Shown here: in pieces, positions 12,970 to 30,725 of the stretch
Position numbering within the stretch: position 1 is the stretch's first letter
Layout: each line of letters opens with the position of its first letter
From: Candidatus Kaiserbacteria bacterium RIFCSPHIGHO2_01_FULL_53_29
GTDB taxonomy: Bacteria; Patescibacteriota; Minisyncoccia; Phycocordibacterales; UBA2100
Assembly (NCBI GenBank): GCA_001781125.1
Contig: MFKT01000029.1
Location: 68,040 to 132,039 of the forward strand
Length of the DNA stretch: 64,000 nt
Direction of reading: 5' to 3'
Program-made: the position numbers and the translations under genes
Notes under the pieces: generated by a model
Databases searched by the model: none
The model's input: only the letters and a program-made list of their open reading frames with translations
Told to the model about the DNA's origin: nothing

Positions 12970-13443
12970 ATGCCGGATGTTGAAGCAATTCTCAAGGAAC
13001 TCCTTGCTGCTCTCGGCGTCCCCTATGTGAGCGTCGAGCATAGCTCGATCGCCGGACAGGAGATCTTCTCGATCCGCACCGAGGCGGAGGCCCGCGTCCT
13101 TATCGGCATACATGGCGACACTGTGCACGCGCTCGACACCTTGGTAAAAAAGATCTACGAGAAACGCCTGCCTGCTCCCGCGGAAGGAGAGATAGCGGAG
13201 CGCTCCCCGATGTTCCTGATCGACGTCAACGACTATCGCGCGAAGCAGATCAAGGATCTGCAGGCGAAGGCCCTCATGATGGCCGAGCGTGCGCGCTCGT
13301 TCCAGTACGACGTCGAGCTCTCCCCCATGAGCTCATACGAACGTCTCATTATTCACACGACGCTCCAGGACGCGCCGAACGTGAAAACAGAGTCACAGGG
13401 AGAAGGAAGAAATAGACGAGTCGTGATTAAATATTCAGTGTAA
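12970..13443 (+). CDS. jag: Jag/KhpB-like RNA-binding protein (Jag_N, KH and R3H domains)
   Basis: 157 aa. Follows yidC as in the canonical rpmH-rnpA-yidC-jag cluster. Confidence 0.8.
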   Translation: MPDVEAILKELLAALGVPYVSVEHSSIAGQEIFSIRTEAEARVLIGIHGDTVHALDTLVKKIYEKRLPAPAEGEIAERSPMFLIDVNDYRAKQIKDLQAKALMMAERARSFQYDVELSPMSSYERLIIHTTLQDAPNVKTESQGEGRNRRVVIKYSV

Positions 13444-13631: not shown

Positions 13632-14033
13632 TCAGTCTACCTTCGCCGGCGTGATGTTTTGGAGGGCTTTCAAGGTCAAAATATCCGGATTGATCTGGTA
13701 GAGAATAAGATAAATTGCAAGAAGCAAGAGGAGCCCGAACGTCACTTCGCCGAGGATGCCTTTGGCCGCGCTCTTTGTGCTCCACATATCGGCTGCTCCC
13801 ATGTAGAGGTACCCTGCATAGGCTATCCGCAAGACGGCGCCGATCGCACCGATCACAAGCGCGAATTTGAAAAGGCTGTTGACGAAATTCGAGAGATCGC
13901 CCTGCGTAGCGTAGAGCTGCCCCAATTTTGATGACCCCGGTGTTTGCGCAAGCGGTACAAAGGTTCCCACTTGGTAGAGTACAAAACGTCCGCGAGATCT
14001 CAGATACTGTAGGAATTTCTTCATGGGAATCAT
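13632..14033 (-). CDS. Small two-TM pilin-like protein (VirB2/TrbC-like candidate), last gene of the T4SS-like operon
   Basis: Start taken at MIPMKKFLQ, giving an ATGA overlap with the upstream gene's stop. Two long hydrophobic segments separated by a short loop (LFKFALVIGAIGAVLRIAYAGYLYM ... VTFGLLLLLAIYLILY). Confidence 0.45.
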   Translation of the reverse strand: MIPMKKFLQYLRSRGRFVLYQVGTFVPLAQTPGSSKLGQLYATQGDLSNFVNSLFKFALVIGAIGAVLRIAYAGYLYMGAADMWSTKSAAKGILGEVTFGLLLLLAIYLILYQINPDILTLKALQNITPAKVD

Positions 14034-15277
14034 TTGTTGAGCCGCAGGAGCCAGAGAGATCGATCGGTCGCATTTATGAATGCGACATAGTCTCCTCCGC
14101 TGTCCACGATCGGATCGGTAACATCGACCGACGTACCGGCCGGCGAGTACACAAGTTCGGCAGAGCCGGCGAGAGCCTCCACGCGCCAGAAGGCGTCGGA
14201 CGAGTGTATGGCTCCACGGTACCAGTCGTCGAGGAAATTTCTGATCGTTGGTGTCTGCGGCACGCCGCAATATGCGATTAATTCCTTGCCACTTTGCCAT
14301 ACGCACTTGTCTGCAACCGTTTTTATCGGGAGGAGCACCGCTTGTGTGTTCGGAGTCGCCTGTGCGTAGAGAGCCATGGCGCTACCCGCCGATTCTCCCC
14401 AAAGGAGCGCACCCGACGCGTTTTGCCCCGCCGGGGCGGAGCGGGGCAAGATCGTAAGACCGGACGTTGCCCGCAGAAGCGGATCCAGCGTGCCGTCAGC
14501 CTTGAGCTCATACGCGTATCCGGGCACGCCACCTGAAGCGGCCTGTGCAAGAATGATACGGCCGTCCTCAAGCCACAGCAAACGCCAATGCGTGATCGAG
14601 GATGTGAAGATTGTTTTTTGTTTTGATCCATTCCACTGCGAACGGACTCCGGTGACCCCTGTGCCTTCGTGTACGAGATAGAACAATTCATCGGACTTTG
14701 GATTTGTCACGATCTGTGTGATGTTTTTTGCCAGATACAGCCCGGGGAGTGATCGCGTGGATGTCGCGGTATCGGAGACGGGCGTACTGGTGGAAATAGT
14801 TGCAATGAACGTCGTAATGTTGCCCACCTCATCAAGCGAGCGCTCGATCACACGTCCGCTTTCTGTGAGCTGTGCCTCGTAGATCTTCGGGAGGAGCGTA
14901 TTGGAGAGTCGCAGTGTATTCCCCGTTTCCGGATCGGCCTCGAACACATAGCCGGTCGCACGCTCGACGTAGCGCAAGCGCACATCCTTTCCAGTCCCTA
15001 TAAATGCAAGACCGGCAACGGGTTTGCTTTGGACATGCCACAGCTGCGGCGGACGTGCCGTTTGCGTGGGTGAACCTTGCGTGTCCCGCGCGCCACTTCC
15101 AAAAACGGTATTCCCCGCGTTCCCCATGGGTGCCGTTGCCCCGTACCCGCGCGCTGCAGCTCCCGCACGGCTTGTCTGTGATTGCCCGCGCAGGAAAAAA
15201 TACCACCCTGAAAGCCCCCCGAGGATAAGGACCACTACGCCCGCGAGGATATACTCAATGACAGTCTTGGTTTTCAT
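14030..15277 (-). CDS. N-terminally anchored periplasmic protein of unknown function (T4SS-locus associated)
   Basis: 415 aa with a single N-terminal TM (VIEYILAGVVVLILGGLSGWYFFL). Translationally coupled to its neighbours. Confidence 0.5.
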   Translation of the reverse strand: MKTKTVIEYILAGVVVLILGGLSGWYFFLRGQSQTSRAGAAARGYGATAPMGNAGNTVFGSGARDTQGSPTQTARPPQLWHVQSKPVAGLAFIGTGKDVRLRYVERATGYVFEADPETGNTLRLSNTLLPKIYEAQLTESGRVIERSLDEVGNITTFIATISTSTPVSDTATSTRSLPGLYLAKNITQIVTNPKSDELFYLVHEGTGVTGVRSQWNGSKQKTIFTSSITHWRLLWLEDGRIILAQAASGGVPGYAYELKADGTLDPLLRATSGLTILPRSAPAGQNASGALLWGESAGSAMALYAQATPNTQAVLLPIKTVADKCVWQSGKELIAYCGVPQTPTIRNFLDDWYRGAIHSSDAFWRVEALAGSAELVYSPAGTSVDVTDPIVDSGGDYVAFINATDRSLWLLRLNK

Positions 15278-15280
15278 GGT

Positions 15281-16327
15281 TTATTGGTCCACAGAATGGA
15301 ATTGATCTTGTACGCCAGAACTTTCGGAGAAATTGATGTTCCAGGAACTTTTTGCATCCATGTAGTAATTCGTTGCATGAGTGAGTTCAAGTCCGAGAAG
15401 AGCGATTCCCGTTGAGTTCTTTGCGTTGATGGTTATCTCACTCGGACGCGCGGCATTTTGCGCCACTCTGGTGTTATTGACCCGCCAGTCAAAAATGAGC
15501 TGGGCATCATTCGCACTTTGCACCTGCGCAAAATAAGGTATCGCCGCGAACGTCATTTCAGATTCTGGGATGAAGGTCGAAGCGGAAAGTGCATCGTTGT
15601 ACAGGATGCCGAAGAGCGGATGATCTTTATAGAGTAAGAGAATGGGCTCGGTCGATGAGAGGGAAAGCGATCTCGCGCTCGAGAGCGCTGTGTCCCTCGT
15701 GCGGACTTCGAGTGTTATGATGTCAGTACCGAAGAGATGTGGTGAAGGAATTGTTATGCTCGATCTTCCTCTTCCCGAAACGCCCGCGATGACCTCACCG
15801 TTCCTCCGCCAGGTGTAGATGAGGTCAGCGTCGGCCGCAAAGAAACCCGTCGGGAGCTTGAAGCGGGGAATGGCCTGCAGATGAAGATCCACTCCCGCTG
15901 AAACGCGCGCCCCGCCCCGGTAGAAGGGCGGAACAAAAGAATCAGAATCGACCAGCAGATCGAGCCCGGTCGGTATGATCGTAACTTGCGCAGACGCGAC
16001 CGTGCCGACCGGCATGATCGCATCAACCACGATCTTCGTCTCGGTCCCCAGATCTCCTGCGACGACTGTCGCCGTATCGACGCCATCTCCTTGCGCGATC
16101 ACTTTTCCGTTCGCATGCCACGTCAGCGTGATCTCGGAGAGGTCTAAGCTCAAGCTCCGTGCGCTCAAACGCACCGTGTCTCCCGCATCAGGGTGTGCGG
16201 GCGAAAGAGAGATCGAGAGATCCGCACCTTGCTCCGGAGAGGTGAATTGTGCATAGCCGGGCATTGCAAGAAAGAGTGCGGACAGTGCAAGAAATCCAGC
16301 AAGAGCCCCAGCAAAGCGCGCGCTCAT
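15281..16327 (-). CDS. Secreted protein of unknown function (T4SS-locus associated)
   Basis: 348 aa. Signal peptide MSARFAGALAGFLALSALFLAMPGYAQ. 4-bp overlap with the virB4 stop. Confidence 0.5.
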   Translation of the reverse strand: MSARFAGALAGFLALSALFLAMPGYAQFTSPEQGADLSISLSPAHPDAGDTVRLSARSLSLDLSEITLTWHANGKVIAQGDGVDTATVVAGDLGTETKIVVDAIMPVGTVASAQVTIIPTGLDLLVDSDSFVPPFYRGGARVSAGVDLHLQAIPRFKLPTGFFAADADLIYTWRRNGEVIAGVSGRGRSSITIPSPHLFGTDIITLEVRTRDTALSSARSLSLSSTEPILLLYKDHPLFGILYNDALSASTFIPESEMTFAAIPYFAQVQSANDAQLIFDWRVNNTRVAQNAARPSEITINAKNSTGIALLGLELTHATNYYMDAKSSWNINFSESSGVQDQFHSVDQ

Positions 16328-18264
16328 ACCGAAGCGAGGCGGGGTGCACTCGTGGTCGCAGTATCAGCTCCCGGGGCAGCGTGAGCAGGCGCTTGCGAGG
16401 GCAAGGTGGGTTCGTTCGCACTCGCGAGATCCATTTTAGCTTTTTTGATCGCGAGAATTTGTGAGGGGTCCGAGGTGATGATCTGATCTTCAGTATACGA
16501 TGCGATCACTTTGATGGCGACGTGTTTCAGCCCCGCGAAGAATATCCCCTCCCCCACATCCGATTCCAAGAGTAGATATTTTTCTTCGTCTGAAAGTTTG
16601 AATGTCTGTTGGACAAGATCGACCGATGTCGGCGATTGGCGCAAGAGAAGTTGGATCGAGGAGTTGGTGATCATGGGGATGCCGTAGGGCGAATTGAGGA
16701 AGTCGGAGACGTCCTGTGTGATCGTGGAAATGCCGAGATAGTATTTGCGTCCACGCTTCGCGATGGAAAAAAGAAAGGATGCCGTGTCTTCACTGCGCAT
16801 CATCCACCACGCTTCATCAATGACGAGGAGGCGCTTGCGCAACTCTTTGCGCACCGTGTTCCAGATATGGTGCGTGATGATGTACATGGCGACGGGCTTG
16901 AGGTCGTCTTCCATATCGCGCACAGAAAATACGATGAGTTTTTTATTCATGTCCACGTTGGTCGGGCGGTTCATGAATCCTGACCACGTACCCTTGGTGT
17001 ATTTCGAAAGTCGATTTACCAGCGACTCGCTCCCCTCCATGCCCGAGAGCACGAGCTCGAAGTCCGAGAGAAGCGGCGGCTCGACAAGCGCGAAGTTCGC
17101 TTCGGCGGTGATGTCTTTGAGCGCGTATGTTTCGGTAATGGCGCGATCTATGACCGCGTCTTCTTCGGGAGTGAGGCCGCCCAACATGATGCGGAAGAGC
17201 CCGACCAATGTAATGATGTTGTTGCGCAAGATGTCTCCGGGGTTCTCATCTTCGCGCGGCACGGGGAGATCGAAAGGGTTGATATGGTGCTCGCTCGAGA
17301 GTGAAATGTTGAAGTAGCGCCCGCCCACCGTCTCGGCCAAATATTCATATTCGCGCTCGGGGTCGATGACGATGACCTCTGTATCAAACATTAAACTTCG
17401 CAATATTTCAAGTTTCGTGGTATAACTTTTACCGGCGCCGCTCTTTGCGAATGTGACCGAATTATAGTTCTCTAAAGAAAAACGATCGAAAAGAATGAGC
17501 GATGAGTTGTGTCTATTGATACCGTAGAGAATACCCCGGTCCGAGGTGAGGTCGAATGAAATGAACGGGAAGATCGAGGAGAGCGGGGCGGAATTAAGCT
17601 TCGTGTGGACGTTGATCTCATCGGTCGCAAGCGGCAAGACAGAGCGGAAGCCCTGCTCCTGCTGGAAGAGCGCGGGGCGGATGTACACGAGACGCGATTC
17701 GAGGATCGAGCGGACCTCTGTCTCGACTCTGTCGATCTCCTCGCGGGTGTTGCCGTAGATCGTGAGATAGAGACCGACCTCAAAAATGCGCTCCTGTGCC
17801 TGCTGGAGAGAATCTCGCAGCTGTTCCAGATCCGAATACGCGGTATCGAGCATCGGGTCGCGCACCATGCCCTTCTGTTCGCGCGTCGAGATCTGGCTCT
17901 GCACTTCGGCGACTTTTTTCTGGAATTTTCGCAGCATCTCATTGGTGTCCATCGGATGGATGAAAATAGAAATGTCGATGACCTTGTCCATGTTGATGAT
18001 GGGGGCGAACCAGCCTGTGGTGAGGAAGCGGGGGTAGGAGATGACGAAGAATGTGCGGGCGATGCGCTCGCCCAAGTCGAGCTCGCGCGAAGAGATCCGG
18101 AGCGCGTGTGGCGCGATCACGTCCTGCAGATCCAACACCCCCGATTTGTAGATGTCCTCGGGAAGGACAGGCAAAACATTGGGCCCCTCCACTCGTTTCT
18201 TCTTGAACAGATCTAAGAGCGCCATAGACCTATTTTTGGAGTGGCATCGGCTTGCCTTCCTCAC
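16324..18264 (-). CDS. virB4: VirB4/TrbE-family type IV secretion ATPase
   Basis: Walker A FAKSGAGKSYTT, Walker B LLVIDEAWWMM, and the conserved C-terminal domain. Start may be Met 18225 (MALLDLFKKK). Confidence 0.85.
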   Translation of the reverse strand: MRKASRCHSKNRSMALLDLFKKKRVEGPNVLPVLPEDIYKSGVLDLQDVIAPHALRISSRELDLGERIARTFFVISYPRFLTTGWFAPIINMDKVIDISIFIHPMDTNEMLRKFQKKVAEVQSQISTREQKGMVRDPMLDTAYSDLEQLRDSLQQAQERIFEVGLYLTIYGNTREEIDRVETEVRSILESRLVYIRPALFQQEQGFRSVLPLATDEINVHTKLNSAPLSSIFPFISFDLTSDRGILYGINRHNSSLILFDRFSLENYNSVTFAKSGAGKSYTTKLEILRSLMFDTEVIVIDPEREYEYLAETVGGRYFNISLSSEHHINPFDLPVPREDENPGDILRNNIITLVGLFRIMLGGLTPEEDAVIDRAITETYALKDITAEANFALVEPPLLSDFELVLSGMEGSESLVNRLSKYTKGTWSGFMNRPTNVDMNKKLIVFSVRDMEDDLKPVAMYIITHHIWNTVRKELRKRLLVIDEAWWMMRSEDTASFLFSIAKRGRKYYLGISTITQDVSDFLNSPYGIPMITNSSIQLLLRQSPTSVDLVQQTFKLSDEEKYLLLESDVGEGIFFAGLKHVAIKVIASYTEDQIITSDPSQILAIKKAKMDLASANEPTLPSQAPAHAAPGADTATTSAPRLASV

Positions 18265-18895
18265 CGGGGTTGAACATCTTGTAGAGAAGTTCTATTGCTT
18301 CTTCGGTGCCGAGTTGTACCGTGCGCACGCCGGTGCGCACCAGCCCCTGCTGCACGATCGAGACACGCTGCTCGAGCTGTGTGACCTGTTCTTCGAACGA
18401 CCTGTTCGCCTCTTCGCTCCCTTTCTTCTTTTTCCCGAATGGCAAGAGTGCGAGCGGACCCCTCTGCGTGATGTCGATCGACGCAGAGTACGGCACTGCG
18501 ACGAAGAAATTTTTTGTCATGATATTGGCGGCTTCGGTGAAGCTCTTTACGAACTCGATATATTCGCGGATCTGGATGCGCATGAGGTCGTCGAGCTGCT
18601 CCTTGTACGCGGCCTCCAGTGTCGCCACATAGGGGCGGATGTCGAGCATGCGCGACTGCACGAAGATCTGCACGGAAAAATCCAGCGAGTTGAGAAAATT
18701 TTGGAATTGCACGATGAATGCGGTTTGTTCATCTTCGGATTTAAGCGCGAAGTTGATGCTCGAGGCGAGAAGTATGGCGCGCAAGCCGCCGTCTTTGAGT
18801 ACGATGACACCGTCGCGCACCTCGGAAACCGGCAGGAATTCCTGCGTTGAGCGGGCGGAGGCGCGCGGGCCTTTATCTTCTGTTTTTGTGGGCAT
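18230..18895 (-). CDS. Hypothetical T4SS-associated protein immediately upstream of virB4
   Basis: 221 aa, soluble. Co-oriented and tightly packed in the operon. Confidence 0.5.
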   Translation of the reverse strand: MPTKTEDKGPRASARSTQEFLPVSEVRDGVIVLKDGGLRAILLASSINFALKSEDEQTAFIVQFQNFLNSLDFSVQIFVQSRMLDIRPYVATLEAAYKEQLDDLMRIQIREYIEFVKSFTEAANIMTKNFFVAVPYSASIDITQRGPLALLPFGKKKKGSEEANRSFEEQVTQLEQRVSIVQQGLVRTGVRTVQLGTEEAIELLYKMFNPGEEGKPMPLQK

Positions 18896-18898
18896 AGG

Positions 18899-19408
18899 TT
18901 ACTGGCTGCGCGCGAGCGCTTGCTGCGCCGTGCGTATCGGTACGACGAGGTCTTGATCGGTGCGGATAATGTGGCGCTCCTCGTCGTTGGCGACCCCTCC
19001 CGCGATACGCTCCTTAATATCCAAACTCCACGAGAGTTCATGTAATCTGCTCTCGGAGAGCTTAGGCACGTAGATCTCGGCACTCCCCTGCGCCATCTTG
19101 CCCACCACCGGCATCGCAACACTTTTTTTGCGTGTGTTGTTCCAGAGATAGAGCTTGCTTCGCAGAAGGAAAAAGAACCCGTTCTCGAGGGCAAGAATAA
19201 ATGGCCGTCCATTGACCTGGAAAAAGGCAAGACCTGCGGCAAGGCCACCGGTGAGTACCACAAGAGGCGCCGCAAGATACATGGGCAATACGCGCCACAT
19301 GATGTAACAAGCGCCGAGGCCCCCGGCGACGTAGATGAATTGTTTAAAGGTCAAAGGGCCAAAAATCTTATCCTCGACCTCGATGAATTGTGGTACCTGG
19401 AATTGCAT
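18899..19408 (-). CDS. Small two-TM protein, VirB3/PrgI-like candidate
   Basis: 169 aa. Hydrophobic hairpin FIYVAGGLGACYIMWRVLPMYLAAPLVVLTGGLAAGLAFF, typical of VirB3-class subunits that precede VirB4. Confidence 0.5.
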   Translation of the reverse strand: MQFQVPQFIEVEDKIFGPLTFKQFIYVAGGLGACYIMWRVLPMYLAAPLVVLTGGLAAGLAFFQVNGRPFILALENGFFFLLRSKLYLWNNTRKKSVAMPVVGKMAQGSAEIYVPKLSESRLHELSWSLDIKERIAGGVANDEERHIIRTDQDLVVPIRTAQQALARSQ

Positions 19409-19414
19409 AGAGTT

Positions 19415-19445
19415 AGCTTGTAGCCGGTAGCTTGTAGCCGGTAGC
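19415..19445. repeat. Heptamer-array arm (AGCTTGT/AGCCGGT units), left arm flanking the IVS-protein gene
   Basis: agcttgtagccggtagcttgtagccggtagc. Reverse complement of the arm at 19818-19853. Confidence 0.8.
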
Positions 19446-19465
19446 TAAAAAAGCACCCGGCAAGC

Positions 19466-19816
19466 TTACCGAAGCGCTTTAATCATACCATGCAACATTT
19501 TACTCATTTCGGTTACTTGTGTACGCACGTTTTCGAACTCTTTTTCTGTGCAAAAGGCAAGCTCCTTGCTTATTAAGAGCTGCGTTTCAAGCTCAGCTAA
19601 GGAGCCGTGCGCCATTCGCAAGAAATGTCCAAAATCGGCATCGGTCCCACGCCGTCTCCCCTCTGCTATGTTTGATGGTACAGATACGGCTGCGCGACGG
19701 ATTTGTGATGTAAGGCCATACATCTCACGCGACGGGAACTTTTCGGTGAGCCGGTATATCAATGTACAAAGTGCAACCGCCTTTTTCCAGACCGCCAAAT
19801 CTTCGTGTGATTGCAT
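19466..19816 (-). CDS. Four-helix-bundle protein of the 23S rRNA intervening-sequence (IVS) family (PF05635-like)
   Basis: HEDLAVWKKAVALCTLIYRLTEKFPSREMYGLTSQIRRAAVSVPSNIAEGRRRGTDADFGHFLRMAHGSLAELETQL is the hallmark sequence of this family. ATG at 19816 preferred over the TTG at 19840, which lies inside the repeat arm. Confidence 0.8.
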   Translation of the reverse strand: MQSHEDLAVWKKAVALCTLIYRLTEKFPSREMYGLTSQIRRAAVSVPSNIAEGRRRGTDADFGHFLRMAHGSLAELETQLLISKELAFCTEKEFENVRTQVTEMSKMLHGMIKALR

Positions 19817-19817
19817 A

Positions 19818-19853
19818 GAGCTACGGGCTACTGGCTGCAAGCTACTGGCTTAC
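19818..19853. repeat. Heptamer-array arm, right arm flanking the IVS-protein gene
   Basis: gagctacgggctactggctgcaagctactggcttac. Inverted partner of 19415-19445. Confidence 0.8.
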
Positions 19854-20473
19854 TGCGGTGGCTCCCGGTAGGGATCGTCTTCAACGGACTTCCGAACTGT
19901 CGAGGCCTCGCCGGCTTTGTAGGCGGCTGATACGGGCGCGCGTTCTATTTTCCCCGTAGGTGAGGTCGAGGGCGGTGTAGCCGGTGCAACGAAGCTTGTA
20001 GCTTGTAGCTTGTAGCTTGTAGCAGATTCGGCATTCGTGCTGGCTTCAGGCTCCAAGCTACTGGCTACGGGCTGTTCTCCCAGCACTTGCGAGCGCACAT
20101 CTTCAACCCCGGTCGTATCTGCGGCCCTTGCATCCGGATGCTCGAGCTCACGCTCGAGCTGTTCGCGGACCGGTTGGAACACGATGCGGGAAACATTCGA
20201 AGCCAAGTCCTGTGCCATCTCCTGCGTAACATCAAGGTCTGCTTTGATGTTATCCGCAAGCTCCTCCGGTGGCTGGAACCCCATGAGCGTGAGCAGTACC
20301 TCGTTCTCCAGGAGTTGCCATTGGTCAAGATGCAATTTATTGGTATCCGCCAATTCCCGCAGCTGCTTCTGTATGTCGGTCGACGTAATAGCATCTTGCA
20401 ACACCTTCGGGAGCTCCTTAAACCGCTCCTTCAACTTCGCATTCAACTCATCTTGTGTCATTTTCATGTCCAT
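19850..20473 (-). CDS. Hypothetical acidic protein whose C-terminal region is encoded by a heptamer-repeat element
   Basis: N-terminal 120 aa look protein-like (MDMKMTQDELNAKLKERFKELPKVLQDAI...). C-terminal part translates the repeat (SYKLQATS). True 3' end uncertain. Confidence 0.4.
   Translation of the reverse strand: MDMKMTQDELNAKLKERFKELPKVLQDAITSTDIQKQLRELADTNKLHLDQWQLLENEVLLTLMGFQPPEELADNIKADLDVTQEMAQDLASNVSRIVFQPVREQLERELEHPDARAADTTGVEDVRSQVLGEQPVASSLEPEASTNAESATSYKLQATSFVAPATPPSTSPTGKIERAPVSAAYKAGEASTVRKSVEDDPYREPPQ
19993..20074. repeat. Heptamer-array inverted-repeat element (4 x AGCTTGT left arm, spacer, complementary right arm)
   Basis: agcttgtagcttgtagcttgtagcttgtagc, then a 19-nt spacer, then gcttcaggctccaagctactggctacgggctg. 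Confidence 0.8.
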
Positions 20474-20486
20474 ATATCAATGGGCA

Positions 20487-23363
20487 CTAGCTAGCTGGTG
20501 CGGCGGGGGCAGCGGGCGCGCCTCCTCCTGCGCCCGAACCAGTTTGTATATCTGCGAGCACGTCACGCAAGCCGGCAGTCTTCACCTTCTTTTTAAACAG
20601 GTCCGGAATTTCATCTTGTACGGCCTTATTTACAAGCGTTACTTTACCCAAAGTACGCGTGAGAATGTCCCCCTGTATTGCAGCGAACTCCTTGACAACT
20701 CCTTGAGCAGAAGTCGCCAGTCCTTTGGTCCCCTCTGTCGCCGCTTGATTCGCAAGTCTTTCCGTATCGGTCTGCCATTTTCTTTCCAGTGTCTCTCCGT
20801 ATTTTTTTTCAGCCGTAGCAAAATCATTCTGTACCCTCTTGAGATTGGGATCGTTTTCTATGTTGCCGATACGTGCTACCAATTGTTCTGCATTGCTGCG
20901 CGCATCGCGCGATCGACCAAACACCTCGTCATATTTTCTTGCTCTTTCTACGACTGCGGGATCTAGGGTAGGAATTTTACTTTGGACCTGAATGCGTGCT
21001 TGTTCGATACGATCTTCTTGGTGTCGCATGTCACTTCTGCGCTGCTCTTCAGAACTGGCGAGCTGGTCTTCAATTACTTTTCGCTGCTTCGAATCGGTAA
21101 TTGTTGAGAGCTGTGCCTTGAGACCTTGAATGACCGGATCATGTTTTGCGGCCGCCGTCGCTTTGCCCCCCGCGACTTCCGCTGCAGCGGCGTCAAGTTC
21201 GCGTTTCGCAGCATCCTTTGCTTCAGAATATTGATTCCGCTCGTCAGCGCTGAGATTGCTTGCTCGGGTCTCCGCTTGATCAATAATATCTTGTGCCGCT
21301 TTTTGTTGCGCAACAAATTTCGGATCATTGGCGAGAGCAGGATTTTCAGTTGCCATTTTCTTTAGGGAATCTCTAATGTCTTCCTGAACCGCAACGTTTT
21401 CCGGGCTGTAGAGGGTGCCATCGTTCGCCGCGGCCTTGAACGCGGTGCGGAACTCGTTGCCCACGGTTGTAAGTTGATCTTTCGTCGCTTTAGCAACCTT
21501 CTCTGCCGTTGTCAGCTGTTCTTTAAGCGGTCGTTCTCCTGCGGGATTCATTTTGCCGTCTGCTTCGTCCGCGGCGTCTTTCAGCGCAGCCTCAGCTATT
21601 TCTTTTGCGTTCTTCCGGTCCTCAACCTCCTTTCGTCGTTCGCGACGGATCCTTTCTTTCTCGATCTCCTTCACCTTTTCGTTGTCCTCTGCTGACGGTG
21701 CGATTTTTGCGGCTATTTTTTCTGCTTTTTCGGTTCGTCCTTTGACTTGGTCTGCATAACTCTTTTCGAGAGTAGTTCTCCCTGATTGTCCTGCTGCGAA
21801 ACCAGTAATGCCGACCGTTTTGGCAACGTTCTGAGCAGTTTTCGTATCCATTATATTGAAGCGACTATCCGCAAGTTTTCCTGCCTGTTCCATCGATTTC
21901 AATTTACTTGCAGCCAACCTCCTCTTTTCAGCGGCGGCTTTCCGCGTTTGCTCTGCAAGTGGAATGTTCCCCAGCGCTTCGTGTCTGTCCGCCGCCCGGT
22001 CCATAGCCGCCGCTTCATTATTTTCTCTCTTTGCGTCTTTGCCGAGTCTTTTAGCAGCAAAATATGCCGGCATGCCAATGCCCAAACGTCCTGCGCCGCC
22101 CACAAGGAAGCGGCTCCCTTGGATCAAGGGAGATAGAGCAAGAGCGCCGGCCAAATTGAATCCGGTGACAGTTCCTGCGATCTTGCTCGAGAGCTTGAAT
22201 GATATAAAGAGCATGCCGAGTACCATTACGAAGTTGAAGAGCGCGGCGATGTTGGCCCCGGGCGTCTGACTCGTCATGAGAGCGCCGAGGGTCCCACAAT
22301 TATGGCCCCCGCTACAGAGTGCTTTGCTCAAGGAGTTCGAGACATTCAACGTTATCCACAAAAAGAGCATCAATGCGGGTGCTAAGACAGCGCTCCCGAT
22401 AAGCGATTTCCACCATACATCCCATCCATAACTGCTCTTCTCCCACGCGGGAACAAGATAGCTCGCGAATGCGAGCGATGCGGTGACCATCAGGAAGATA
22501 AAAATGAGCGCCCGTGAAGCAAGGAGGTAGGTGCCGTATAAAAAGACGAGCGCGGTAGCGATGAGGAAGACGAAAGAGAGAATGCCGTAGACAAGGCCGA
22601 GAAGCGCGTTGTCGTTATTCTCCTGAATTCCGCGCAGCGCGTTGTATGAGTCGGCGATCCCGCCGACGCCGAGGAATCTCAAAAAACTTCCGGCGATGCC
22701 GTTGCCGGTAATGGTCGCAGCACCCGCCCCTGTGTTTGCGGTCGCGGACGGCGCCGCCGCCTCGTCCGCTTGTTTGAGAGCTCCATTGTAGAGCTGGAGT
22801 GCGGTGAAGTTCGACACGTCGATCATCATCTTGGTAAAAAGCAGGCTGAAGTTGATGAGAATGGCGATGATGAGTACCTTCGCGACCATTTTTTTCGCGT
22901 TGAACGTTTGCAATCCGAGAATGGTGCCGATCGCGATAAAAGTGAATATGCCGATGATAAGGATGTTGGCGATATCGCGAAATGCGCTCCACGCGGTATT
23001 GACCCCTTGCTCGATATTGTTGAATATCAGACCTCTGAAGTCGACTATGGTCGCCTTCAGCGCAAATTCGAAGAGCATACTCATCCAGGTGAGGACTGTT
23101 ATTCCGATGTACATAAAGAGCGATCCGAGACCCGCGAATATGCCCCGCATCCAACATATCGGATTTAAGTTGCTCAAATTCCATCCGCTCGAGCATGAAG
23201 TGCTCCCCGCATCATTCGCGACGCCGGAAGCCCCCACGACAGCGTTGAGACCTTGCGCATGGGTAACGGTGGGAATAGCTGTTACCCCTGCGCTGAAGCA
23301 GACCAAGAGCGCAATAAAGACGATTGCGGATCTTTGCCAACGAGTTTGTTTGAAGGTCATCAT
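20487..23363 (-). CDS. VirB6/TrbL-like polytopic membrane protein with a long C-terminal K/E/A-rich coiled-coil extension
   Basis: Signal/TM N-terminus, then about 8 TM helices over the first roughly 480 aa (TrbL/VirB6 architecture). Then about 470 aa of low-complexity charged coiled coil ending in GSGAGGGAPAAPAAPAS. Confidence 0.65.
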   Translation of the reverse strand: MMTFKQTRWQRSAIVFIALLVCFSAGVTAIPTVTHAQGLNAVVGASGVANDAGSTSCSSGWNLSNLNPICWMRGIFAGLGSLFMYIGITVLTWMSMLFEFALKATIVDFRGLIFNNIEQGVNTAWSAFRDIANILIIGIFTFIAIGTILGLQTFNAKKMVAKVLIIAILINFSLLFTKMMIDVSNFTALQLYNGALKQADEAAAPSATANTGAGAATITGNGIAGSFLRFLGVGGIADSYNALRGIQENNDNALLGLVYGILSFVFLIATALVFLYGTYLLASRALIFIFLMVTASLAFASYLVPAWEKSSYGWDVWWKSLIGSAVLAPALMLFLWITLNVSNSLSKALCSGGHNCGTLGALMTSQTPGANIAALFNFVMVLGMLFISFKLSSKIAGTVTGFNLAGALALSPLIQGSRFLVGGAGRLGIGMPAYFAAKRLGKDAKRENNEAAAMDRAADRHEALGNIPLAEQTRKAAAEKRRLAASKLKSMEQAGKLADSRFNIMDTKTAQNVAKTVGITGFAAGQSGRTTLEKSYADQVKGRTEKAEKIAAKIAPSAEDNEKVKEIEKERIRRERRKEVEDRKNAKEIAEAALKDAADEADGKMNPAGERPLKEQLTTAEKVAKATKDQLTTVGNEFRTAFKAAANDGTLYSPENVAVQEDIRDSLKKMATENPALANDPKFVAQQKAAQDIIDQAETRASNLSADERNQYSEAKDAAKRELDAAAAEVAGGKATAAAKHDPVIQGLKAQLSTITDSKQRKVIEDQLASSEEQRRSDMRHQEDRIEQARIQVQSKIPTLDPAVVERARKYDEVFGRSRDARSNAEQLVARIGNIENDPNLKRVQNDFATAEKKYGETLERKWQTDTERLANQAATEGTKGLATSAQGVVKEFAAIQGDILTRTLGKVTLVNKAVQDEIPDLFKKKVKTAGLRDVLADIQTGSGAGGGAPAAPAAPAS

Positions 23364-23505
23364 ACCCGGCTAGTACAATTTCGAATAATTCCTGCCGCAG
23401 GTCACACTGCGGAAAGGTTGCATAACGGCTGAGTCATTTTTTCTTGTCATACGTTGGTGAATATTCATACAAGGCGATTCGAAATTGTCCTGCCGGGCAT
23501 ACTCA

Positions 23506-25209
23506 TTACTTCCACTTTGTGACCCACGCCGCTCTCGTCGCATCGTTCGTGGCGTTGCACCAGCCGACCCCGGGATTTGTCGTGCCGTCCCATGAGAGAT
23601 TTGCGGGAGTGCTCCCATCAGAGCCGACTCCTGTCCATGTATCTCTCGTCGTTTGCAGCAAATTCGTCAATGAGCTCAGGGTGCTTTGCTGTTGCTGTGT
23701 GATCGCTGCCACATCCGGCGGCGTATGGAGAACAGGAGGACGCGCACTGACGAGCTGATCGAGCTCCTGGAGTGCCTGGGATTGTGTGGCGGGATTCGAG
23801 AGACGTGCAGCGATACTCGTGAGTTTTGCAAGCGTTTCATCGGATTTCTGGATGGCGGGTAGTATTTGAGCCGCCAAAGTTCCGATCTGGGAATCGATGA
23901 CCGCTTGCGCGAATTGATAGGTCGAAGTCGCAACGGTGAGACTGCCGCTTGCAGGCGGTTTGGCGGTACATTTTCTATCAGCGTCTGGTGGTGCGGTGCA
24001 CACGTTCGAAATGACGAGAGCCCAGCACTGATTCTCGAGGCCCCGCAGCTGCAATGTCGCTTGCGTGAGCAGACTCCCGATCGATTTCACGACCTGATTG
24101 TACTGCTGCTCTGTTCGCAGAGCGCCGGCGAGATTGTTGTTCGCGACATTGACGGCGGCATCCCGCAGGCCCTGCCCCGATTGCGAGGAGACCTGATCGA
24201 GATATGATGGCTGGCCGCCGATGCTTTGAGACAGGCCCGCGAGTCCCTGAGAATCAGCCACGATCTGTGTTGCCACGCCGGCATAGAGAGCTCCTATCAT
24301 CTGGCCGATGTCGTTGGCGCTTTCCAGTTGGCGCACAGAACTATCGATGACGTTCTGGAACGTGCTGTTCACGTTGGAGGCTGGCGTGAGCACCCTTTGG
24401 TTCAGGGGATCTTGCGCCCCATCGGTTAGGGCATAATAGCCGCGACCCCAATTCCATTGATCAAGCTGGTACTGTTTCGCCGCTGCGATCCTGCTGTTTA
24501 CGAGATCCTGAGCTTCAAATTTTGCATATAGAGGGACACAATCCGGATCGGCCCCGGCAAGAAAAGCATCGAAACTGAAATTCTGTGTCGGGTTGGTCTG
24601 GAACGGGGTCAGATCCCCCTCATAGGGACACGTGAGCTCGGTCTGCGGCGCCCTAGTACTTGTGTCGTAATTGACGAGTACGGCACGACTCACCGCCGCC
24701 TTGAAAGCCGGATTGAGCGAATCGAGCGCACCGCTCTGGAACCACGAAACGAATACTTGATCGCCTACGGTCAAGAGTTCCTGCCCTTCATTCACCGCGT
24801 ACTGTGGATTGCCGTTGCGACCCTCTTGGATCCCCTTGTAAGACCTTTTTAAATATGCTGCGCTGGCGGCTTCCCGCTGGCGGACTATCACTTCGCGCAG
24901 CACGCATTCTTTGTACACCAGGATCCCTGTATTGAGCTCGACGGTCGCATCGGCAACGGGCACGTATATCCCGTTTGCCGTGAGCGACCCCACATTCATC
25001 GCGAACGCGCCGTTCTGGTTGCAGTCGAAGATCCCCTGTCGCTGGTATTGATACGCCTGCGCGTTCGCAAAAAGAGGCAGAAAGCATCCCGAGACAACGA
25101 GCGCAGACAAAAGGGTCTTCTTCACCCCGTTAGAGACCGCAGGCAACGAATTTTCTTTCATCATCATTTGGTCAGTTGTTGGACGACCGGAGTCTCTAAT
25201 GGGGCTCAT
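23506..25209 (-). CDS. Large secreted protein of unknown function (T4SS-locus associated)
   Basis: 567 aa. Hydrophobic leader KKTLLSALVVSGCFLPLFANAQA. ATGA start/stop overlap with the upstream gene. Q/N/S-rich. Confidence 0.55.
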   Translation of the reverse strand: MSPIRDSGRPTTDQMMMKENSLPAVSNGVKKTLLSALVVSGCFLPLFANAQAYQYQRQGIFDCNQNGAFAMNVGSLTANGIYVPVADATVELNTGILVYKECVLREVIVRQREAASAAYLKRSYKGIQEGRNGNPQYAVNEGQELLTVGDQVFVSWFQSGALDSLNPAFKAAVSRAVLVNYDTSTRAPQTELTCPYEGDLTPFQTNPTQNFSFDAFLAGADPDCVPLYAKFEAQDLVNSRIAAAKQYQLDQWNWGRGYYALTDGAQDPLNQRVLTPASNVNSTFQNVIDSSVRQLESANDIGQMIGALYAGVATQIVADSQGLAGLSQSIGGQPSYLDQVSSQSGQGLRDAAVNVANNNLAGALRTEQQYNQVVKSIGSLLTQATLQLRGLENQCWALVISNVCTAPPDADRKCTAKPPASGSLTVATSTYQFAQAVIDSQIGTLAAQILPAIQKSDETLAKLTSIAARLSNPATQSQALQELDQLVSARPPVLHTPPDVAAITQQQQSTLSSLTNLLQTTRDTWTGVGSDGSTPANLSWDGTTNPGVGWCNATNDATRAAWVTKWK

Positions 25210-26053
25210 AGCTGTTTTTTCGCGTTGTACGAGTAGAGCCCACTGAACGATGTGAACATGTTCCGTTCGGCCTGATCATAGCTGCGCAAGAGTGCCACTG
25301 AGGCAAACGGGTCCTCCGCGTGTGCCACCAGCTGCTCAAGTGTCGCCGCGAATTCCTGCATTGCATTAAGAATAGCGAGGTGCTGCACGACAGCGTCTGC
25401 CGGAGCCGCGACATTCGCAGTGGAGGCAGCCGCATCTTTGTAATTCTTTGCCACTTCGGTGAGTTCTTTGAGGTAGGACGCATCTTTCGTTTGCACGTAG
25501 TTCCCAAAGATCTCGTATTCAGGGGTCGTGTTCTTGAAAAGCGGCTTCAGTGTGCTCTGGAGAGCAAGGCGATACGCGAGCATTGCCGCATAAGACGTGT
25601 CGGAGCTTGTCTTGACGTCTGCCTTTGTGAAGCGGCGATATGAGACCTCTGCGCGCATCAGCGGAGCGAGATCCTGTGCGATTTGCGCGCCCGCCTCCTC
25701 CGTATACGTACCCGCTTGCTGCATCTGCGCGTATTGACCGGCAAGCCGGTCCATCACCACTGCGCCAATGGAGGAGATCGCGTCGGTCGAAGACGTCGCG
25801 GATGAAAAAGATGCACTGCCGAATATCGACATCCCCGCCACGTTTTCTTTTGACGAAGAAATGTCTGTACCCGCATCCGCAGAGGCGACATAGGTCGTTG
25901 CACTTTTCTTCTCCTGCACCGATCTCTCCACGCTCCATCCAAGAACCACCATGAGCGCCAAGACAGAAGCTGCGGCGGTTATCCCAATAGCCGTGAACCC
26001 ACGACTGTTGTTGCAATAGGACAAAAAGCCCACGCATCTGTTCGCGCGTTTCG
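25206..26053 (-). CDS. Membrane-anchored protein of unknown function (start uncertain; ORF-track N-terminus runs into the repeat element)
   Basis: TM segment ITAAASVLALMVVLGW followed by an S/A/T-rich soluble domain. Upstream ORF extension translates heptamer repeats (MLQATSYWLQ), so the start is placed at the GTG/Met near 26053. Confidence 0.45.
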
Positions 26054-26075
26054 TTCTCACACAGGAAGTATAACA

Positions 26076-26171
26076 AGCTTGTAGCCAGTAGCTTGTAGCT
26101 TGTAGCAAAAAAGAGGAAAAATACGAAACACTCTCTGGCTTCAGGCTACGAGCTGCTGGCTACAGGCTCCC
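26076..26171. repeat. Heptamer-array inverted-repeat element
   Basis: agcttgtagccagtagcttgtagcttgtagc, then a 31-nt A-rich spacer, then ggcttcaggctacgagctgctggctacaggctcc. Confidence 0.8.
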
Positions 26172-26210
26172 GATTTGTCCGCGCGTAGCGCGGTCACAAA
26201 TCGCAGTCCT

Positions 26211-27104
26211 TTATGGGCTCATGGGCGTGAACGTGAAGACGCTTCCCGCATCACTTTGTGCAAAGACGACGCCATAGGCGCCGAAAAGTTCTGCCACCGC
26301 GACATAGTTTCTTGTGAACGTATCAGCCGAAGCGTTGTACGTCTGTATTGCCGCAATAAAATCACTATCGCGCTCTGCATAAGGCACCAGTGCGAGGTTG
26401 GTTCCTATCGCGATGTAGCTCTTTGCCAATTTCTGGTGCGCCGAAGCCATTGCGCTTGGCACGACGTCCATACCTTGGAGATTTTGGCCCACTTCTTTGA
26501 GAGCCCGCGCGAGCTCGCCCACGGCGGCTGCCTTATTGCTGTCACTGCGGTCCTCGACCTGATCTTTAAGCGTCTGCGCTTTCCCTTGGTTCTGTTCTTC
26601 AAAAGATCGAATGTATGAACCAATATCGTTGCCGTAATCGTAGAGTTTTTGCTGTGTCGCGCTGCGACTCTGTTGGACCGACGTGGTGCTCATAAGTCCG
26701 CTTGGTATGAATGCGTATGCATCTGTCACCTGGTTGTCAGTGCCTCGCGCCCCGCCCGAGGCGGGTCGGCCTTGGGCCGAGAGCAGTGCGATGAACGCGT
26801 TGAAATCGAATGGAGCACTCTGCTCCGTATCAGGATCTTTTACCACAGGCGGGGTATATGCGGAGGGCACGGTCAGAACATTTGGGAACACGGAGTATTG
26901 ATTTTGGGATGGCTGGGTCGACGCGGGGGCAGGAGGCGTATGCGATGATGGATTGAAGAGTGAGATCTCTGTGCCTGCCCACGTCCGTGTGCTTGCGGCG
27001 GGGGATGCCGCGGAGCGGCTGTTCACAATGAGCGCGCCCACGAGGAGAAGTGCCAGCGTTGCGGCCAATGCATCTACGTACGGGTGTGCGCGTAACCAAT
27101 TCAT
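26211..27104 (-). CDS. Membrane-anchored protein of unknown function; carries an in-frame palindromic insertion (QGRPASGGARG)
   Basis: 297 aa. N-terminal TM ALAATLALLLVGALIV. First gene of the minus-strand operon. Contains the element cccgaggcgggtcggccttggg at 26755-26776. Confidence 0.5.
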   Translation of the reverse strand: MNWLRAHPYVDALAATLALLLVGALIVNSRSAASPAASTRTWAGTEISLFNPSSHTPPAPASTQPSQNQYSVFPNVLTVPSAYTPPVVKDPDTEQSAPFDFNAFIALLSAQGRPASGGARGTDNQVTDAYAFIPSGLMSTTSVQQSRSATQQKLYDYGNDIGSYIRSFEEQNQGKAQTLKDQVEDRSDSNKAAAVGELARALKEVGQNLQGMDVVPSAMASAHQKLAKSYIAIGTNLALVPYAERDSDFIAAIQTYNASADTFTRNYVAVAELFGAYGVVFAQSDAGSVFTFTPMSP

Positions 27105-27197
27105 AGCCGGTAGCCGGTAGCTTGTAGCTCGTAGCGGATCCGAAGCCCCATCCGACTAATTGTACGGCTACGGGCTACAGGCTACAAGCTACGGGCT
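27104..27197. repeat. Heptamer-array inverted-repeat element in the divergent promoter region
   Basis: agccggtagccggtagcttgtagctcgtagc, then a 30-nt spacer, then ggctacgggctacaggctacaagctacgggctg. Confidence 0.8.
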
Positions 27198-27215
27198 GTG
27201 TGGTAAAATTTATGA

Positions 27216-27530
27216 ATGCGTCCTGCCGCACTTGCTGCCATCCTATCTTTACTTATAACTCCGCTTGCCGTGCATGCGTTCCCCTTTGGTGGACAAGCGA
27301 ACATAGTACGGCCTTGTTACAACAACGCGATCTATGCCAACCTCGGGCCTCCCGTCGGCGGCCCATATATCTGGACTCCTTCCACAAAGACGTACCAATT
27401 TGGTCCGCCTACGCATGCGGGGCAGTGGCTTCTCGGACTTGCCGGGGCTCCCTACTATTGCATCATCTCGATCGAGCCGGTCATCGTCTGGCCCGGCACC
27501 TACATCACGATGATGGGGTCAAGTCAATAA
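27216..27530 (+). CDS. Small secreted Cys-containing protein of unknown function
   Basis: 104 aa. Signal peptide MRPAALAAILSLLITPLAVHA with an AXA-type cleavage site. Divergent from the T4SS-like operon. Confidence 0.4.
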   Translation: MRPAALAAILSLLITPLAVHAFPFGGQANIVRPCYNNAIYANLGPPVGGPYIWTPSTKTYQFGPPTHAGQWLLGLAGAPYYCIISIEPVIVWPGTYITMMGSSQ

Positions 27531-30331: not shown

Positions 30332-30725
30332 ACATCGGACGACTATAGCATGTACTTTCTTCTTCATATAGAAAACGGCTTAAAACAAGGCTACAATAAG
30401 TATCGTCGAGATTGACAATTAGGTTATCCACCGTCCCGCCCTATTATGAATTGACGATGAACCCCTAATGAGGGTAGAGTGAACGGACGGTGGCACTACC
30501 GTACGCTACTCTAGAGGCTGAATCTCCTAAAAAATGAGATTTAAAGCCAAATTTCTGTCCATTCCCTTGTGCCATCTTTAAAAGAGGCTTTATTGTCTAG
30601 CTGAAGATAGAGGATAGCAAAAGTAGGGGTTTTTTGCGTATTCACCAGCGATGACAGAAAGCCGATTAGATCGGCCTATATATAGAAAAAAGAGTGATTC
30701 TCTGCAGGACTCGCGTCCGCGCGGG

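Follow-up and report, generated by a model that had tools for sequence, protein, structure and literature searches.

A chromosomal type IV secretion system locus beside dnaA in a Candidatus Kaiserbacteria genome and its accessory envelope proteins

What is a type IV secretion system (T4SS) used for when it is encoded among housekeeping genes, with neither a coupling protein nor a relaxase beside it? This question is raised by a locus next to dnaA in Candidatus Kaiserbacteria bacterium RIFCSPHIGHO2_01_FULL_53_29, a metagenome-assembled genome from groundwater (Parcubacteria group, Patescibacteria; class Paceibacteria). We studied a stretch of 64,000 nucleotides (nt) of its contig MFKT01000029.1, which is called the window below; all coordinates refer to it. 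The locus consists of 12 co-oriented genes on the minus strand (13632-27104, 13,473 bp) and one divergent gene on the plus strand (27216-27530). We consider it likely that the locus is a derivative of monoderm (MPF-FATA) conjugation machinery that has lost DNA processing and coupling and serves contact-dependent transfer of macromolecules between an epibiont and its host, not the conjugation of a plasmid or of an integrative and conjugative element (ICE).

Patescibacteria, which are ultra-small bacteria, make up a large share of bacterial diversity, and the mechanisms of their host dependence are little understood. The chromosomal T4SS is among the few machines shown to be essential for their lifestyle, so far in one cultivated Saccharibacterium. 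The locus studied here is this known chromosomal T4SS of Patescibacteria, already described in 2023-2025, and its recognition is a rediscovery. Thus the window holds no new kind of system; it provides a clean and complete example from the largest class, Paceibacteria. New are fold-level descriptions of accessory envelope proteins that are unannotated in the literature.

A preliminary description of this DNA, made from the sequence alone, had outlined a T4SS-like locus with VirB4, VirB3-like, VirB2-like and VirB6/TrbL-like proteins and several secreted or membrane proteins. Its observations are partly confirmed and its interpretation is partly supported: the outline is right, and several components were described erroneously. 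For comparison we used related loci picked by VirB4 similarity; the full-length set includes 45 loci from different species with full 10-kb flanks (22-kb loci). The presence of genes was counted by tblastn, and the counts are therefore lower bounds for fast-evolving genes.

Core machinery, absent components and conservation

The VirB4 protein matches the NCBIfam model NF045971 (“VirB4-like conjugal transfer ATPase, CD1110 family”) with E=4.3e-109 and 365.8 bits against a cutoff of 325, as well as the Pfam family P-loop_TraG (PF19044) with E=1e-23. Its Walker A motif is AKSGAGKS and its Walker B motif is LLVIDEAWW. Outside the candidate phyla radiation (CPR) the protein is at most 36% identical to plasmid VirB4 proteins, and the hosts are monoderm throughout among the matches listed. 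Judging by these similarities, VirB4 belongs to the monoderm (MPF-FATA/CD1110) type. Its identification in the preliminary description stands, while the start proposed there, GTG 18264, should most likely be replaced with ATG 18225, which gives 633 amino acids (aa) and agrees with the public gene calls that we used for starts (proteins OGG52413-OGG52424).

The product of this gene corresponds to the C-terminal two-thirds of a canonical VirB4. The gene directly upstream had been taken for a secreted or anchored protein without domains. It encodes no hydrophobic segment, matches PF26593 (TraC-like) and NF041427 (TrsD, E=5.7e-6), and is matched by VirB4 profile models at their N-terminal positions. 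Moreover, a single clostridial VirB4 of 783 aa spans both genes: its residues 21-196 align at 18853-18251, and residues 203-754 at 18159-16531. The TrsD-like gene encodes the detached N-terminal domain of VirB4, and VirB4 is split over two adjacent genes.

The VirB3-like protein of the preliminary description is confirmed by a match to PF12666 (E=2.4e-9, 38 bits against a cutoff of 27). This PrgI protein is the VirB3 equivalent and the membrane anchor for VirB4. The pilin-like label also holds. The window copy taken separately scores 17.7 bits with PF18895 (T4SS_pilin), under the cutoff of 26.6; the family is nevertheless recognised across an alignment of this copy with 34 orthologues, where PF18895 is matched by 34 of 35 sequences (best E=8.4e-11) and PF04956 (TrbC/VirB2) by five. 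No pilin paralogue was found elsewhere in the window, so the pilin is a single copy and there is no pilin array. Several related species (L017:14405-15226, L032:14778-16196, L021:4589-5500, L049:13293-15035 and others) have a longer open reading frame (ORF) of 270-580 aa with a pilin domain and with extensions before or after it; these are putative fusions or artefacts of the ORF caller. In a more distant clade the pilin gene is located between p348 and p415 instead of after p415.

We looked for the missing parts of a conjugation system by running Pfam on all window ORFs of 200 aa or more, by consulting precomputed Pfam annotation of the flanks, and by tblastn with clostridial proteins. No VirD4, relaxase, MobC, VirB11 or VirB9/10 was found in ~80 kb that comprise the window, 5.7 kb on its left and 10 kb on its right, in agreement with the absences noted earlier for the window. 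The VirD4, relaxase, MobC and SLT hydrolase of a clostridial plasmid had no tblastn match in the window or in 86 related loci. For relaxase and MobC both Pfam and tblastn were negative on the window and its flanks (oriT was not searched for). The VirB7/VirB9/VirB10 outer-membrane core and the VirB11 ATPase gave no Pfam or NCBIfam match on proteins of the locus or the window. Having no coupling protein, relaxase or outer-membrane core, the locus is therefore probably not a conjugation system. In this respect the preliminary description coincides with the published reading of Patescibacteria T4SSs (PMC10633639, PMC12102498, PMC12857230).

There is no mobile-element signature within the same ~80 kb, and no ICE-type integrase flanks the locus. 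The sole integrase-family gene is 23 kb away; it has Phage_integrase and SAM-like N-terminal domains, and we interpret it as Xer-like. An ICE or prophage origin was considered and rejected because the locus has a fixed core-genome position between housekeeping genes in 45 species.

Relatives of VirB4 are present in at least 581 species-representative genomes, and the best 80 of them are 74-94% identical to it. A lack of conservation of the uncharacterised proteins had been named earlier as grounds for refutation; the related loci do not refute the reading in this way: p415, p348, TrsD (median identity 62%) and PrgI were detected in 45 of the 45 full loci, p958 in 44, the pilin in 36 and p207 in 35. 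Detections are fewer for p275 (23/45), p551 and cys104 (22/45 each) and p297 (18/45). The flanking genes dnaA and ksgA are found in 44 and 41 of these loci, respectively. The order dnaN-dnaA-yidC-jag / pilin-p415-p348-VirB4-TrsD-PrgI-p207-p958 ... ksgA-uvrD is kept across the set, with p958, p207, PrgI, TrsD and VirB4 following each other in 44 of 45 loci.

In 55 of the 57 loci compared (among L008-L087), which like all the related loci were chosen by VirB4 similarity, the identity of VirB4 is higher than that of DnaA (medians of 77% vs 56%, median difference of 20 points). VirB4 is also more conserved than every other gene compared, including DnaN, YidC, KsgA and UvrD. Such values indicate an unusually strong constraint for a T4SS ATPase. 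Conservation above the level of DnaA fits a core cellular function and not a mobile element, and the locus belongs to the core genome and is under very strong purifying selection. For a requirement in host-dependent growth this strong conservation is indirect support.

The VirB6-like protein and the accessory proteins

After a signal peptide and a Cys-rich segment on the outside, the protein p958 has a polytopic core (aa ~74-396), which a basic juxtamembrane segment joins to a tail of ~520 aa. The protein has seven to eight hydrophobic helices after the signal peptide and is encoded near PrgI and VirB4. The VirB6/TrbL label that the preliminary description gave to it finds no match at the level of sequence. 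Neither the single sequence nor a 20-member profile matched VirB6/TrbL in Pfam, NCBIfam or PDB sequences, and the VirB6/TrbL profiles PF04610 and PF19478 matched neither p958 nor 20 of its homologues even at E<=10. A comparison of the p958 profile with a weakly TrbL_2-like protein of a clostridial CD1110-type plasmid gave an hhalign probability of 0.3%, and none of the p958 homologues listed has a precomputed Pfam domain. The membrane-domain family is very large: an exhaustive profile search found 17,036 cluster representatives at E<=1e-3.

Structure prediction provides a weak link. The AlphaFold2 (AF2) model of aa 1-441 has pLDDT 69.6. Among 350,542 PDB chains, the best Foldseek matches of the membrane-domain model are TrwI/VirB6 chains of R388. 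They are weak (8rt9_F, E=5.9e-3; 7o3v chains F, G and J, TM 0.38-0.42), and the TM-scores are low (0.25-0.29 on the query, 0.36-0.46 on the target). Gene order, polytopic topology and this weak fold similarity allow p958 to be called VirB6-like; its inclusion in the VirB6/TrbL family is not justified.

The C-terminal ~470 aa of p958 had been presented as an unusually long, charged low-complexity coiled coil. The length turns out to be a family trait: a long tail is common to all 113 aligned homologues of at least 700 aa (median 821 aa), and the Southlakia protein SEML1_0013 also has one. In the family the tail is rich in K, R, E, D, A and Q, typically comprises 340-430 residues (up to 632), and has a short P/A/T/G-rich end. 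p958 is among the five longest members because of two lineage-specific insertions (aa ~641-760 and ~801-860). Its own tail contains 17% A, 10% K, 9% E, 7% R and 7% D, has a net charge of +5 and ends with a short P/A-rich C-terminus. Two conserved modules, aa ~481-580 and ~861-940, led us to reject simple low complexity, and heptad-like periodicity is patchy, being significant in 23% of 42-aa windows.

Directly past the last helix the chain becomes strongly basic (K+R 4.5 vs D+E 0.5), which suggests that the tail is cytoplasmic. Together with the Cys-rich N-terminal segment this suggests an N-out/C-in topology. VirB6 of Agrobacterium has the same N-out, C-in topology.

Genes for lineage-specific envelope proteins lie closely packed among the core genes. 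p415 has an N-terminal membrane anchor, a disordered linker and an extracytoplasmic beta-propeller with ~7 blades. Its AF2 model (pLDDT 88, pTM 0.79) contains a helix at 2-42 and ~28 strands. Foldseek found 637 PDB matches at E<=1e-3, and the top 50 are mostly beta-propellers (Lp49 3bws_A with E=5.8e-8, lectins, TolB, WD40); the profile of p415 matches TolB below the threshold. p348 combines a signal peptide, visible as an N-terminal hydrophobic segment, with tandem Ig-like domains. Its profile (alignment A3) matches the Ig-like domains of phage T4 Hoc with E=6.1e-5, and the protein weakly matches Pfam BiPBP_C; according to the repeated sequence pattern, the domains apparently number three.

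p551 has an N-terminal hydrophobic segment and nearly invariant Cys residues (alignment A4). Its core matched nothing in PDB or Pfam, and the comparison of its profile with the clostridial SLT hydrolase also gave nothing. The protein is probably surface-exposed, because 4 of its 26 orthologues carry additional domains: discoidin (F5/8 type C) domains in two cases and Bact_surface_Ig-like domains in two others. The proteins p275 and p297 are bitopic (the transmembrane segment of p297 is aa 8-31) and paralogous to each other, with a common C-terminal domain of ~140 aa (hhalign of alignments A5 and A6: probability 99%, E=5.9e-18). The p275 profile yielded only noise against PDB, and the p297 profile gave an hhalign probability of 0.3% with a 240-aa clostridial neighbour.

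In p207 a variable Pro-rich linker joins a conserved N-terminal domain to an invariant DPYRE motif at the C-terminus, in which D200, P201, Y202 and E204 are the invariant residues (alignment A10). The protein has no hydrophobic segment, and its comparison with Pfam gave only noise. The product of the divergent gene, cys104, confirms the small secreted Cys protein reported earlier. After its signal peptide comes a G/P/Y-rich domain, in which C34 and C82 are invariant (mean column identity of 48%, alignment A9); no PDB match was found for its profile. The gene occupies the same position in the 22 full loci that contain it, with a median identity of 62%, and lies on the strand opposite to the operon in all listed loci except L008. 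No accessory family has a second copy elsewhere in the window. With such an elaborate extracytoplasmic set in a locus of at least 12 genes, the machine is not the minimal one that had been supposed.

Known systems, proposed function and rival explanations

The closest experimental evidence comes from Southlakia epibionticum, in which Wang et al. (2023) described a T4SS adjoining dnaA and demonstrated by transposon sequencing (Tn-seq) that it is essential for epibiotic growth (PMC10633639). This system is nearest to Gram-positive conjugative systems, has pilins and lacks recognisable coupling and relaxase proteins (PMC10633639). The cluster of strain ML1 (SEML1_0006-0019) resembles the window locus in many respects. 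It is chromosomal and directly beside dnaA/dnaN; VirB4 is followed by a small hypothetical gene in the TrsD position (SEML1_0009) and then by a PrgI family protein; the pilins belong to PF18895, and no coupling protein or relaxase is recognisable. The fold of SEML1_0013 (at least 1085 aa) was the basis of its annotation as TrbL/VirB6-like (PMC10633639), and like p958 this protein combines a membrane domain with a long helical (CesA-like/ARM-like) C-terminal part. The differences are in the periphery. Southlakia has six pilin genes vs one in the window locus, and only its cluster includes a lysozyme/CHAP protein, a large M15/M23-like peptidase, an NTF2-like (VirB8-like) protein and a second protein of 998 aa. 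In place of this set the Kaiserbacteria locus encodes the beta-propeller, the Ig-like protein, p551, p275/p297, p207 and cys104. Essentiality was shown for Southlakia only.

The phylum-wide survey of Quinonero-Coronel et al. (2025) describes an MPF-FATA-related VirB4 clade with TrsD as its most frequent partner, PrgI, VirB2-like pilins, scarce VirB6 detections and nearly absent relaxases, and reports the dnaA/dnaN/rnpA/rpmH/ksgA neighbourhood in Paceibacteria (PMC12102498). The window locus agrees with it in the VirB4 type, TrsD, the PrgI-type VirB3, the pilins, the neighbourhood and the absence of a relaxase and a nearby coupling protein; the dataset of the survey includes Kaiserbacteria genomes. 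Most neighbouring genes were left grey there (no homology), and we did not find the folds or families of p415, p348 and p275/p297, the p207 motif or the anatomy of the p958 tail in the main text of PMC12102498. A 2025 review regards the Patescibacteria systems as unique among monoderm T4SSs and defines “extended VirB6” proteins by five or more hydrophobic helices and large hydrophilic domains without an assigned role (PMC12857230).

Among conjugative systems, those of Firmicutes (MPF-FATA of the CTn2/CD1110 type, e.g., Clostridium perfringens pSXP-169_2, and pCF10 Prg/Pcf) share with the window locus a monoderm architecture without VirB7/9/10. The window VirB4 is 32% identical to the clostridial VirB4 and exceeds the cutoff of the CD1110 family. 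The clostridial plasmid module has the order MobC - relaxase - DUF3801 - VirD4 - x - VirB6-like - PrgI - VirB4 - SLT hydrolase; the order VirB6-like, PrgI, VirB4 is common to both. However, MobC, relaxase, DUF3801, VirD4 (CD1115) and SLT hydrolase are all missing from the window locus, and the clostridial VirB4 is a single 783-aa protein while that of the window is split. Also, Gram-positive conjugative systems generally have no pilus or VirB2 pilin (PMC12102498, PMC10633639), unlike the window locus. A separate TrsD-like gene for the VirB4 N-terminal domain beside the ATPase gene is found in the Trs system (TrsD + TrsE) of pGO1/pSK41, which is a plasmid conjugation system with a relaxase and a coupling protein. 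The pGO1 subclass has no VirB6 homologue (PMC12102498). By its helices and large hydrophilic part p958 fits the “extended VirB6” description. The system of R388, whose TrwI/VirB6 (7o3v, 8rt9) gave the best though weak structural matches, is of the diderm type and has a VirB5 tip as well as a VirB7/9/10 core, unlike the window locus.

We infer that the locus functions in host-contact transfer rather than in conjugation. In the mechanism that we propose, TrsD and VirB4 would make up the motor on the cytoplasmic side, for which PrgI and the VirB6-like channel would provide the docking site. The charged tail of p958, perhaps together with the DPYRE peptide of p207, could serve as a docking platform that replaces the VirD4 coupling protein. 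VirB4 would drive the extraction of pilin and its polymerisation into a tube or pilus, while the propeller, the Ig-like protein, p551, p275/p297 and cys104 may form, or be attached to, the structure that spans the wall and surface layers and touches the host cell.

Several points weigh against this reading. The fold similarity behind the VirB6 assignment of p958 is weak, and the topology of the p958 tail is a guess from charge and hydropathy. Neither a VirB8-like component nor an in-operon wall hydrolase was identified among the 13 genes. The essentiality data come from another class (Saccharimonadia) whose accessory genes differ and include six pilins, hydrolases and an NTF2-like VirB8. Beyond the ~80 kb covered there may be a distant VirD4-like gene, as VirD4-like genes are common in Patescibacteria genomes according to the literature. 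Finally, a single transcription unit of 12 genes is putative, as two of the gaps measure 142 and 177 bp and some of the genes are separated by structured hairpin elements.

The possibility of such a distant gene leads to the first rival, an ordinary conjugative T4SS (ICE or chromosomal Hfr-like) for which the coupling protein, the relaxase and the oriT would be located in another part of the genome. VirB4, TrsD and PrgI are indeed homologous to monoderm conjugation proteins, and only ~80 kb of the genome was searched. The survey counted 5,713 VirD4 homologues in 2,918 Patescibacteria genomes, of which only 148 are near virB4; relaxases were found in only 103 genomes, and only 15 cases are near virB4 (PMC12102498). 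Thus coupling proteins are frequent and usually far from virB4, but relaxases are rare. Since, in addition, no VirD4, relaxase, MobC or ICE-type integrase lies within the span covered, 41-44 of 45 species have the locus at the identical place between housekeeping genes and VirB4 is more conserved than DnaA, we regard ordinary conjugation as very unlikely. The lack of a coupling protein would also suit an organelle for adhesion only, in which VirB4 serves to assemble a fibre of the VirB2 type that attaches the cell to its host without any translocation. The pilin gene is translationally coupled to the VirB4 module through its 4-bp overlap with p415, and adhesive surface proteins typically carry domains such as the propeller, the Ig-like domains and the discoidin domains of some orthologues. 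Yet type IV pili for adhesion are also encoded (a PilB-type ATPase gene is just left of the window), and these pili mediate adhesion in Saccharibacteria (PMC12857230). A VirB6-like channel protein with a ~520-aa tail, conserved in 44 of 45 loci, is not obviously needed for a fibre, and tubular connections into the host cytoplasm were reported for a cultured relative (bioRxiv 10.64898/2026.06.21.733656). We find adhesion as the sole function rather improbable.

For a cultured strain of Microgenomatia the same 2026 preprint reports both the tubes that connect parasite and host and an uptake of host RNA. It bears on a further explanation, a dedicated nucleic-acid importer (a ComB/Ced-like uptake T4SS) supplying nucleotides to a cell unable to make them. 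CPR bacteria lack nucleotide synthesis, host RNA acquisition was reported for strain OT8 with VirB4 proposed as the route (bioRxiv 10.64898/2026.06.21.733656), and ComM-like and polynucleotide phosphorylase genes are present in the window. VirB4 itself has a weak partial match to archaeal CedB (NF041017, E=1.9e-9), but its 36.7 bits are far under the cutoff of 700 and the match covers the P-loop region only. Neither CedA/CedA1 nor parts specific to ComB were detected, import as the direction of transport is putative, and deletion of comEC in Southlakia ended competence and not viability, so that DNA uptake for transformation is not the essential function (PMC12857230). A specialised importer seems to us unlikely.

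It is also conceivable, though we would not expect it, that the Paceibacteria version is a distinct T4SS architecture. In this case the p958 tail and p207 would replace VirD4, and a lineage-specific extracellular module (propeller, Ig-like protein, p551, p275/p297, cys104) would form a wall-crossing and host-piercing conduit that draws RNA, DNA or other macromolecules from the host, which would make the machine an essential feeding organelle and not a secretion system. The accessory module and the p958 tail keep a modest chance of architectural novelty. Under the preferred reading of a conjugation-derived machine for host contact, the accessory proteins, the p958 tail and p207 are concrete targets for work on cargo and direction.

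Gene inventory and other features of the window

The genes of the locus, its neighbours and other features are listed in Table 1.

Table 1. Coordinates of the T4SS locus, its flanking genes and other features of the window
Feature	Coordinates	Strand	Basis or remark
dnaN (left flank)	8708-9805		
dnaA (left flank)	10024-11391		
rpmH/rnpA (left flank)			
yidC (left flank)	12175-12921		
jag (left flank)	12970-13443		
VirB2-like pilin, 133 aa	13632-14033	-	two hydrophobic helices; PF18895 family
p415, anchored beta-propeller	14030-15277	-	AF2 and Foldseek
p348, secreted Ig-like	15281-16327	-	profile match to T4 Hoc
VirB4 ATPase, 633 aa	16324-18225	-	NF045971, PF19044
TrsD-like, 221 aa, cytoplasmic	18230-18895	-	PF26593, NF041427
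PrgI/VirB3	18899-19408	-	PF12666
23S-rRNA-IVP four-helix-bundle gene	19466-19816	-	PF05635
p207, cytoplasmic	19850-20473	-	alignment A10
p958, VirB6-like	20487-23363	-	position, topology, weak fold similarity
p551, exported/anchored	23506-25161	-	N-terminal hydrophobic segment
p275, membrane-anchored	25206-26033	-	p297 paralogue
p297, membrane-anchored, first gene of the run	26211-27104	-	p275 paralogue
cys104, small secreted two-Cys protein	27216-27530	+	alignment A9
ksgA (right flank)	27538-28374		
uvrD (right flank)	28328-30268		
LysM + M23 peptidase	30651-31802	+	
HicA toxin / HicB-like (UPF0150) pair	31980-32398	-	precomputed Pfam
ComM/YifB-type Mg-chelatase-family ATPase	34906-36489	-	
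Polynucleotide phosphorylase	39349-41640	-	
Putative surface protein, 606 aa	46375-48195	+	
Integrase-family gene	50953-51945		Phage_integrase, SAM-like N-terminal domain
ORF without Pfam family, 693/597 aa	1334-3415	-	
ORF without Pfam family, 479 aa	37950-39389	-	
ORF without Pfam family, 370 aa	55973-57085	-	
DnaA-box-like trio	57160-57198		
AT-rich stretch	57260-57330		
Hairpin element	3699-3791		
Hairpin element around the IVP gene	19413-19445 and 19820-19845		inverted (GCTACNN)n arms
Hairpin element within p207	19991-20068		
Hairpin element	26081-26170		
Hairpin element	27103-27192		
Hairpin element	43925-44057		

In comparison with the preliminary description, the inventory gains two operon genes that had been omitted, the IVP gene and p207 (207 aa). 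The 13.5-kb minus-strand operon with 4-bp overlaps is retained as a 12-gene run, with such overlaps at the pilin/p415 and p348/virB4 junctions only; the other gaps are 3, 4, 3, 57, 33, 13, 142, 44 and 177 bp. Two gene models had to be adjusted. The gene at 23506-25209 exists, and public contigs call it with 551 aa and a start at 25161. The interval 25206-26053 comprises 848 nt and is out of frame; the ORF is 25206-26108, from which the public call takes 275 aa.

No Shine-Dalgarno sequence was recognisable in the 30 nt upstream of the start of any of the 12 operon genes. Scans for promoters (8 sites vs 8.2 expected) and terminators (23 found vs 15.7 +/- 4.5) were uninformative on transcription units, and Rfam at gathering thresholds gave four tRNAs and nothing else.

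Six heptamer-repeat hairpin elements are scattered over the window. Each is built of a tandem (GCTACNN)3-5 that faces an inverted copy 30-100 nt off (~375 nt around the IVP gene), and the pattern GCTACNNGCTAC has 44 matches in the window vs 1.8 expected. Five of the six were folded as RNA and gave long stems built from GUAGC/GCUAC helices of 5 bp and interrupted by regular small bulges (dG from -34 to -58 kcal/mol, z from -2.7 to -6.7); none of the elements has an Rfam match. Four lie in or beside the T4SS operon, and one of them stops 1 nt short of the p297 start codon. They occur in contigs of the Kaiserbacteria source organism and once in one relative (L012), and look like species-specific elements similar to miniature inverted-repeat transposable elements (MITEs) or repetitive extragenic palindromes (REPs). 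The element inside the p207 coding region is read in frame (...ATSYKLQATSF...) and falls within the variable linker; p207 variants in closely related contigs have 169, 203 and 205 aa.

The IVP gene (PF05635, E=3.2e-40) is located between prgI and p207 in the loop of a long hairpin, an arrangement reminiscent of the intervening sequences of ribosomal RNA. Its homologues are found in 7 of 45 full loci and 14 of 80 loci overall, in 12 of the 14 cases within ~1.8 kb upstream of virB4. This sporadic occurrence led us to reject the gene as a T4SS component; it is probably a passenger cassette.

Three tandem DnaA-box-like motifs (TGTGGACAA, TGTGGACAT and TGTGGATAA) share 40 bp of a non-coding gap of 590 bp located 46 kb from dnaA, and an AT-rich stretch comes after them. 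Beside dnaA itself no DnaA-box cluster was found, only one imperfect box. The true oriC may therefore not be adjacent to dnaA, which bears on the idea of origin-proximal dosage in the literature.

Among the remaining genes, the LysM and M23 peptidase gene lies 3.5 kb past the operon, is syntenic in 6 of 45 related loci and is a candidate stand-in for a VirB1-type wall hydrolase; the HicA toxin and HicB-like pair is located beside it. The ComM/YifB-type ATPase and polynucleotide phosphorylase genes are 8-12 kb from the T4SS, and polynucleotide phosphorylase and VirB4 have been linked to feeding on host RNA in this phylum (bioRxiv 10.64898/2026.06.21.733656). Three further ORFs belong to no Pfam family, and the putative surface protein contains four SpaA-like prealbumin-fold domains and a lamin-tail domain.

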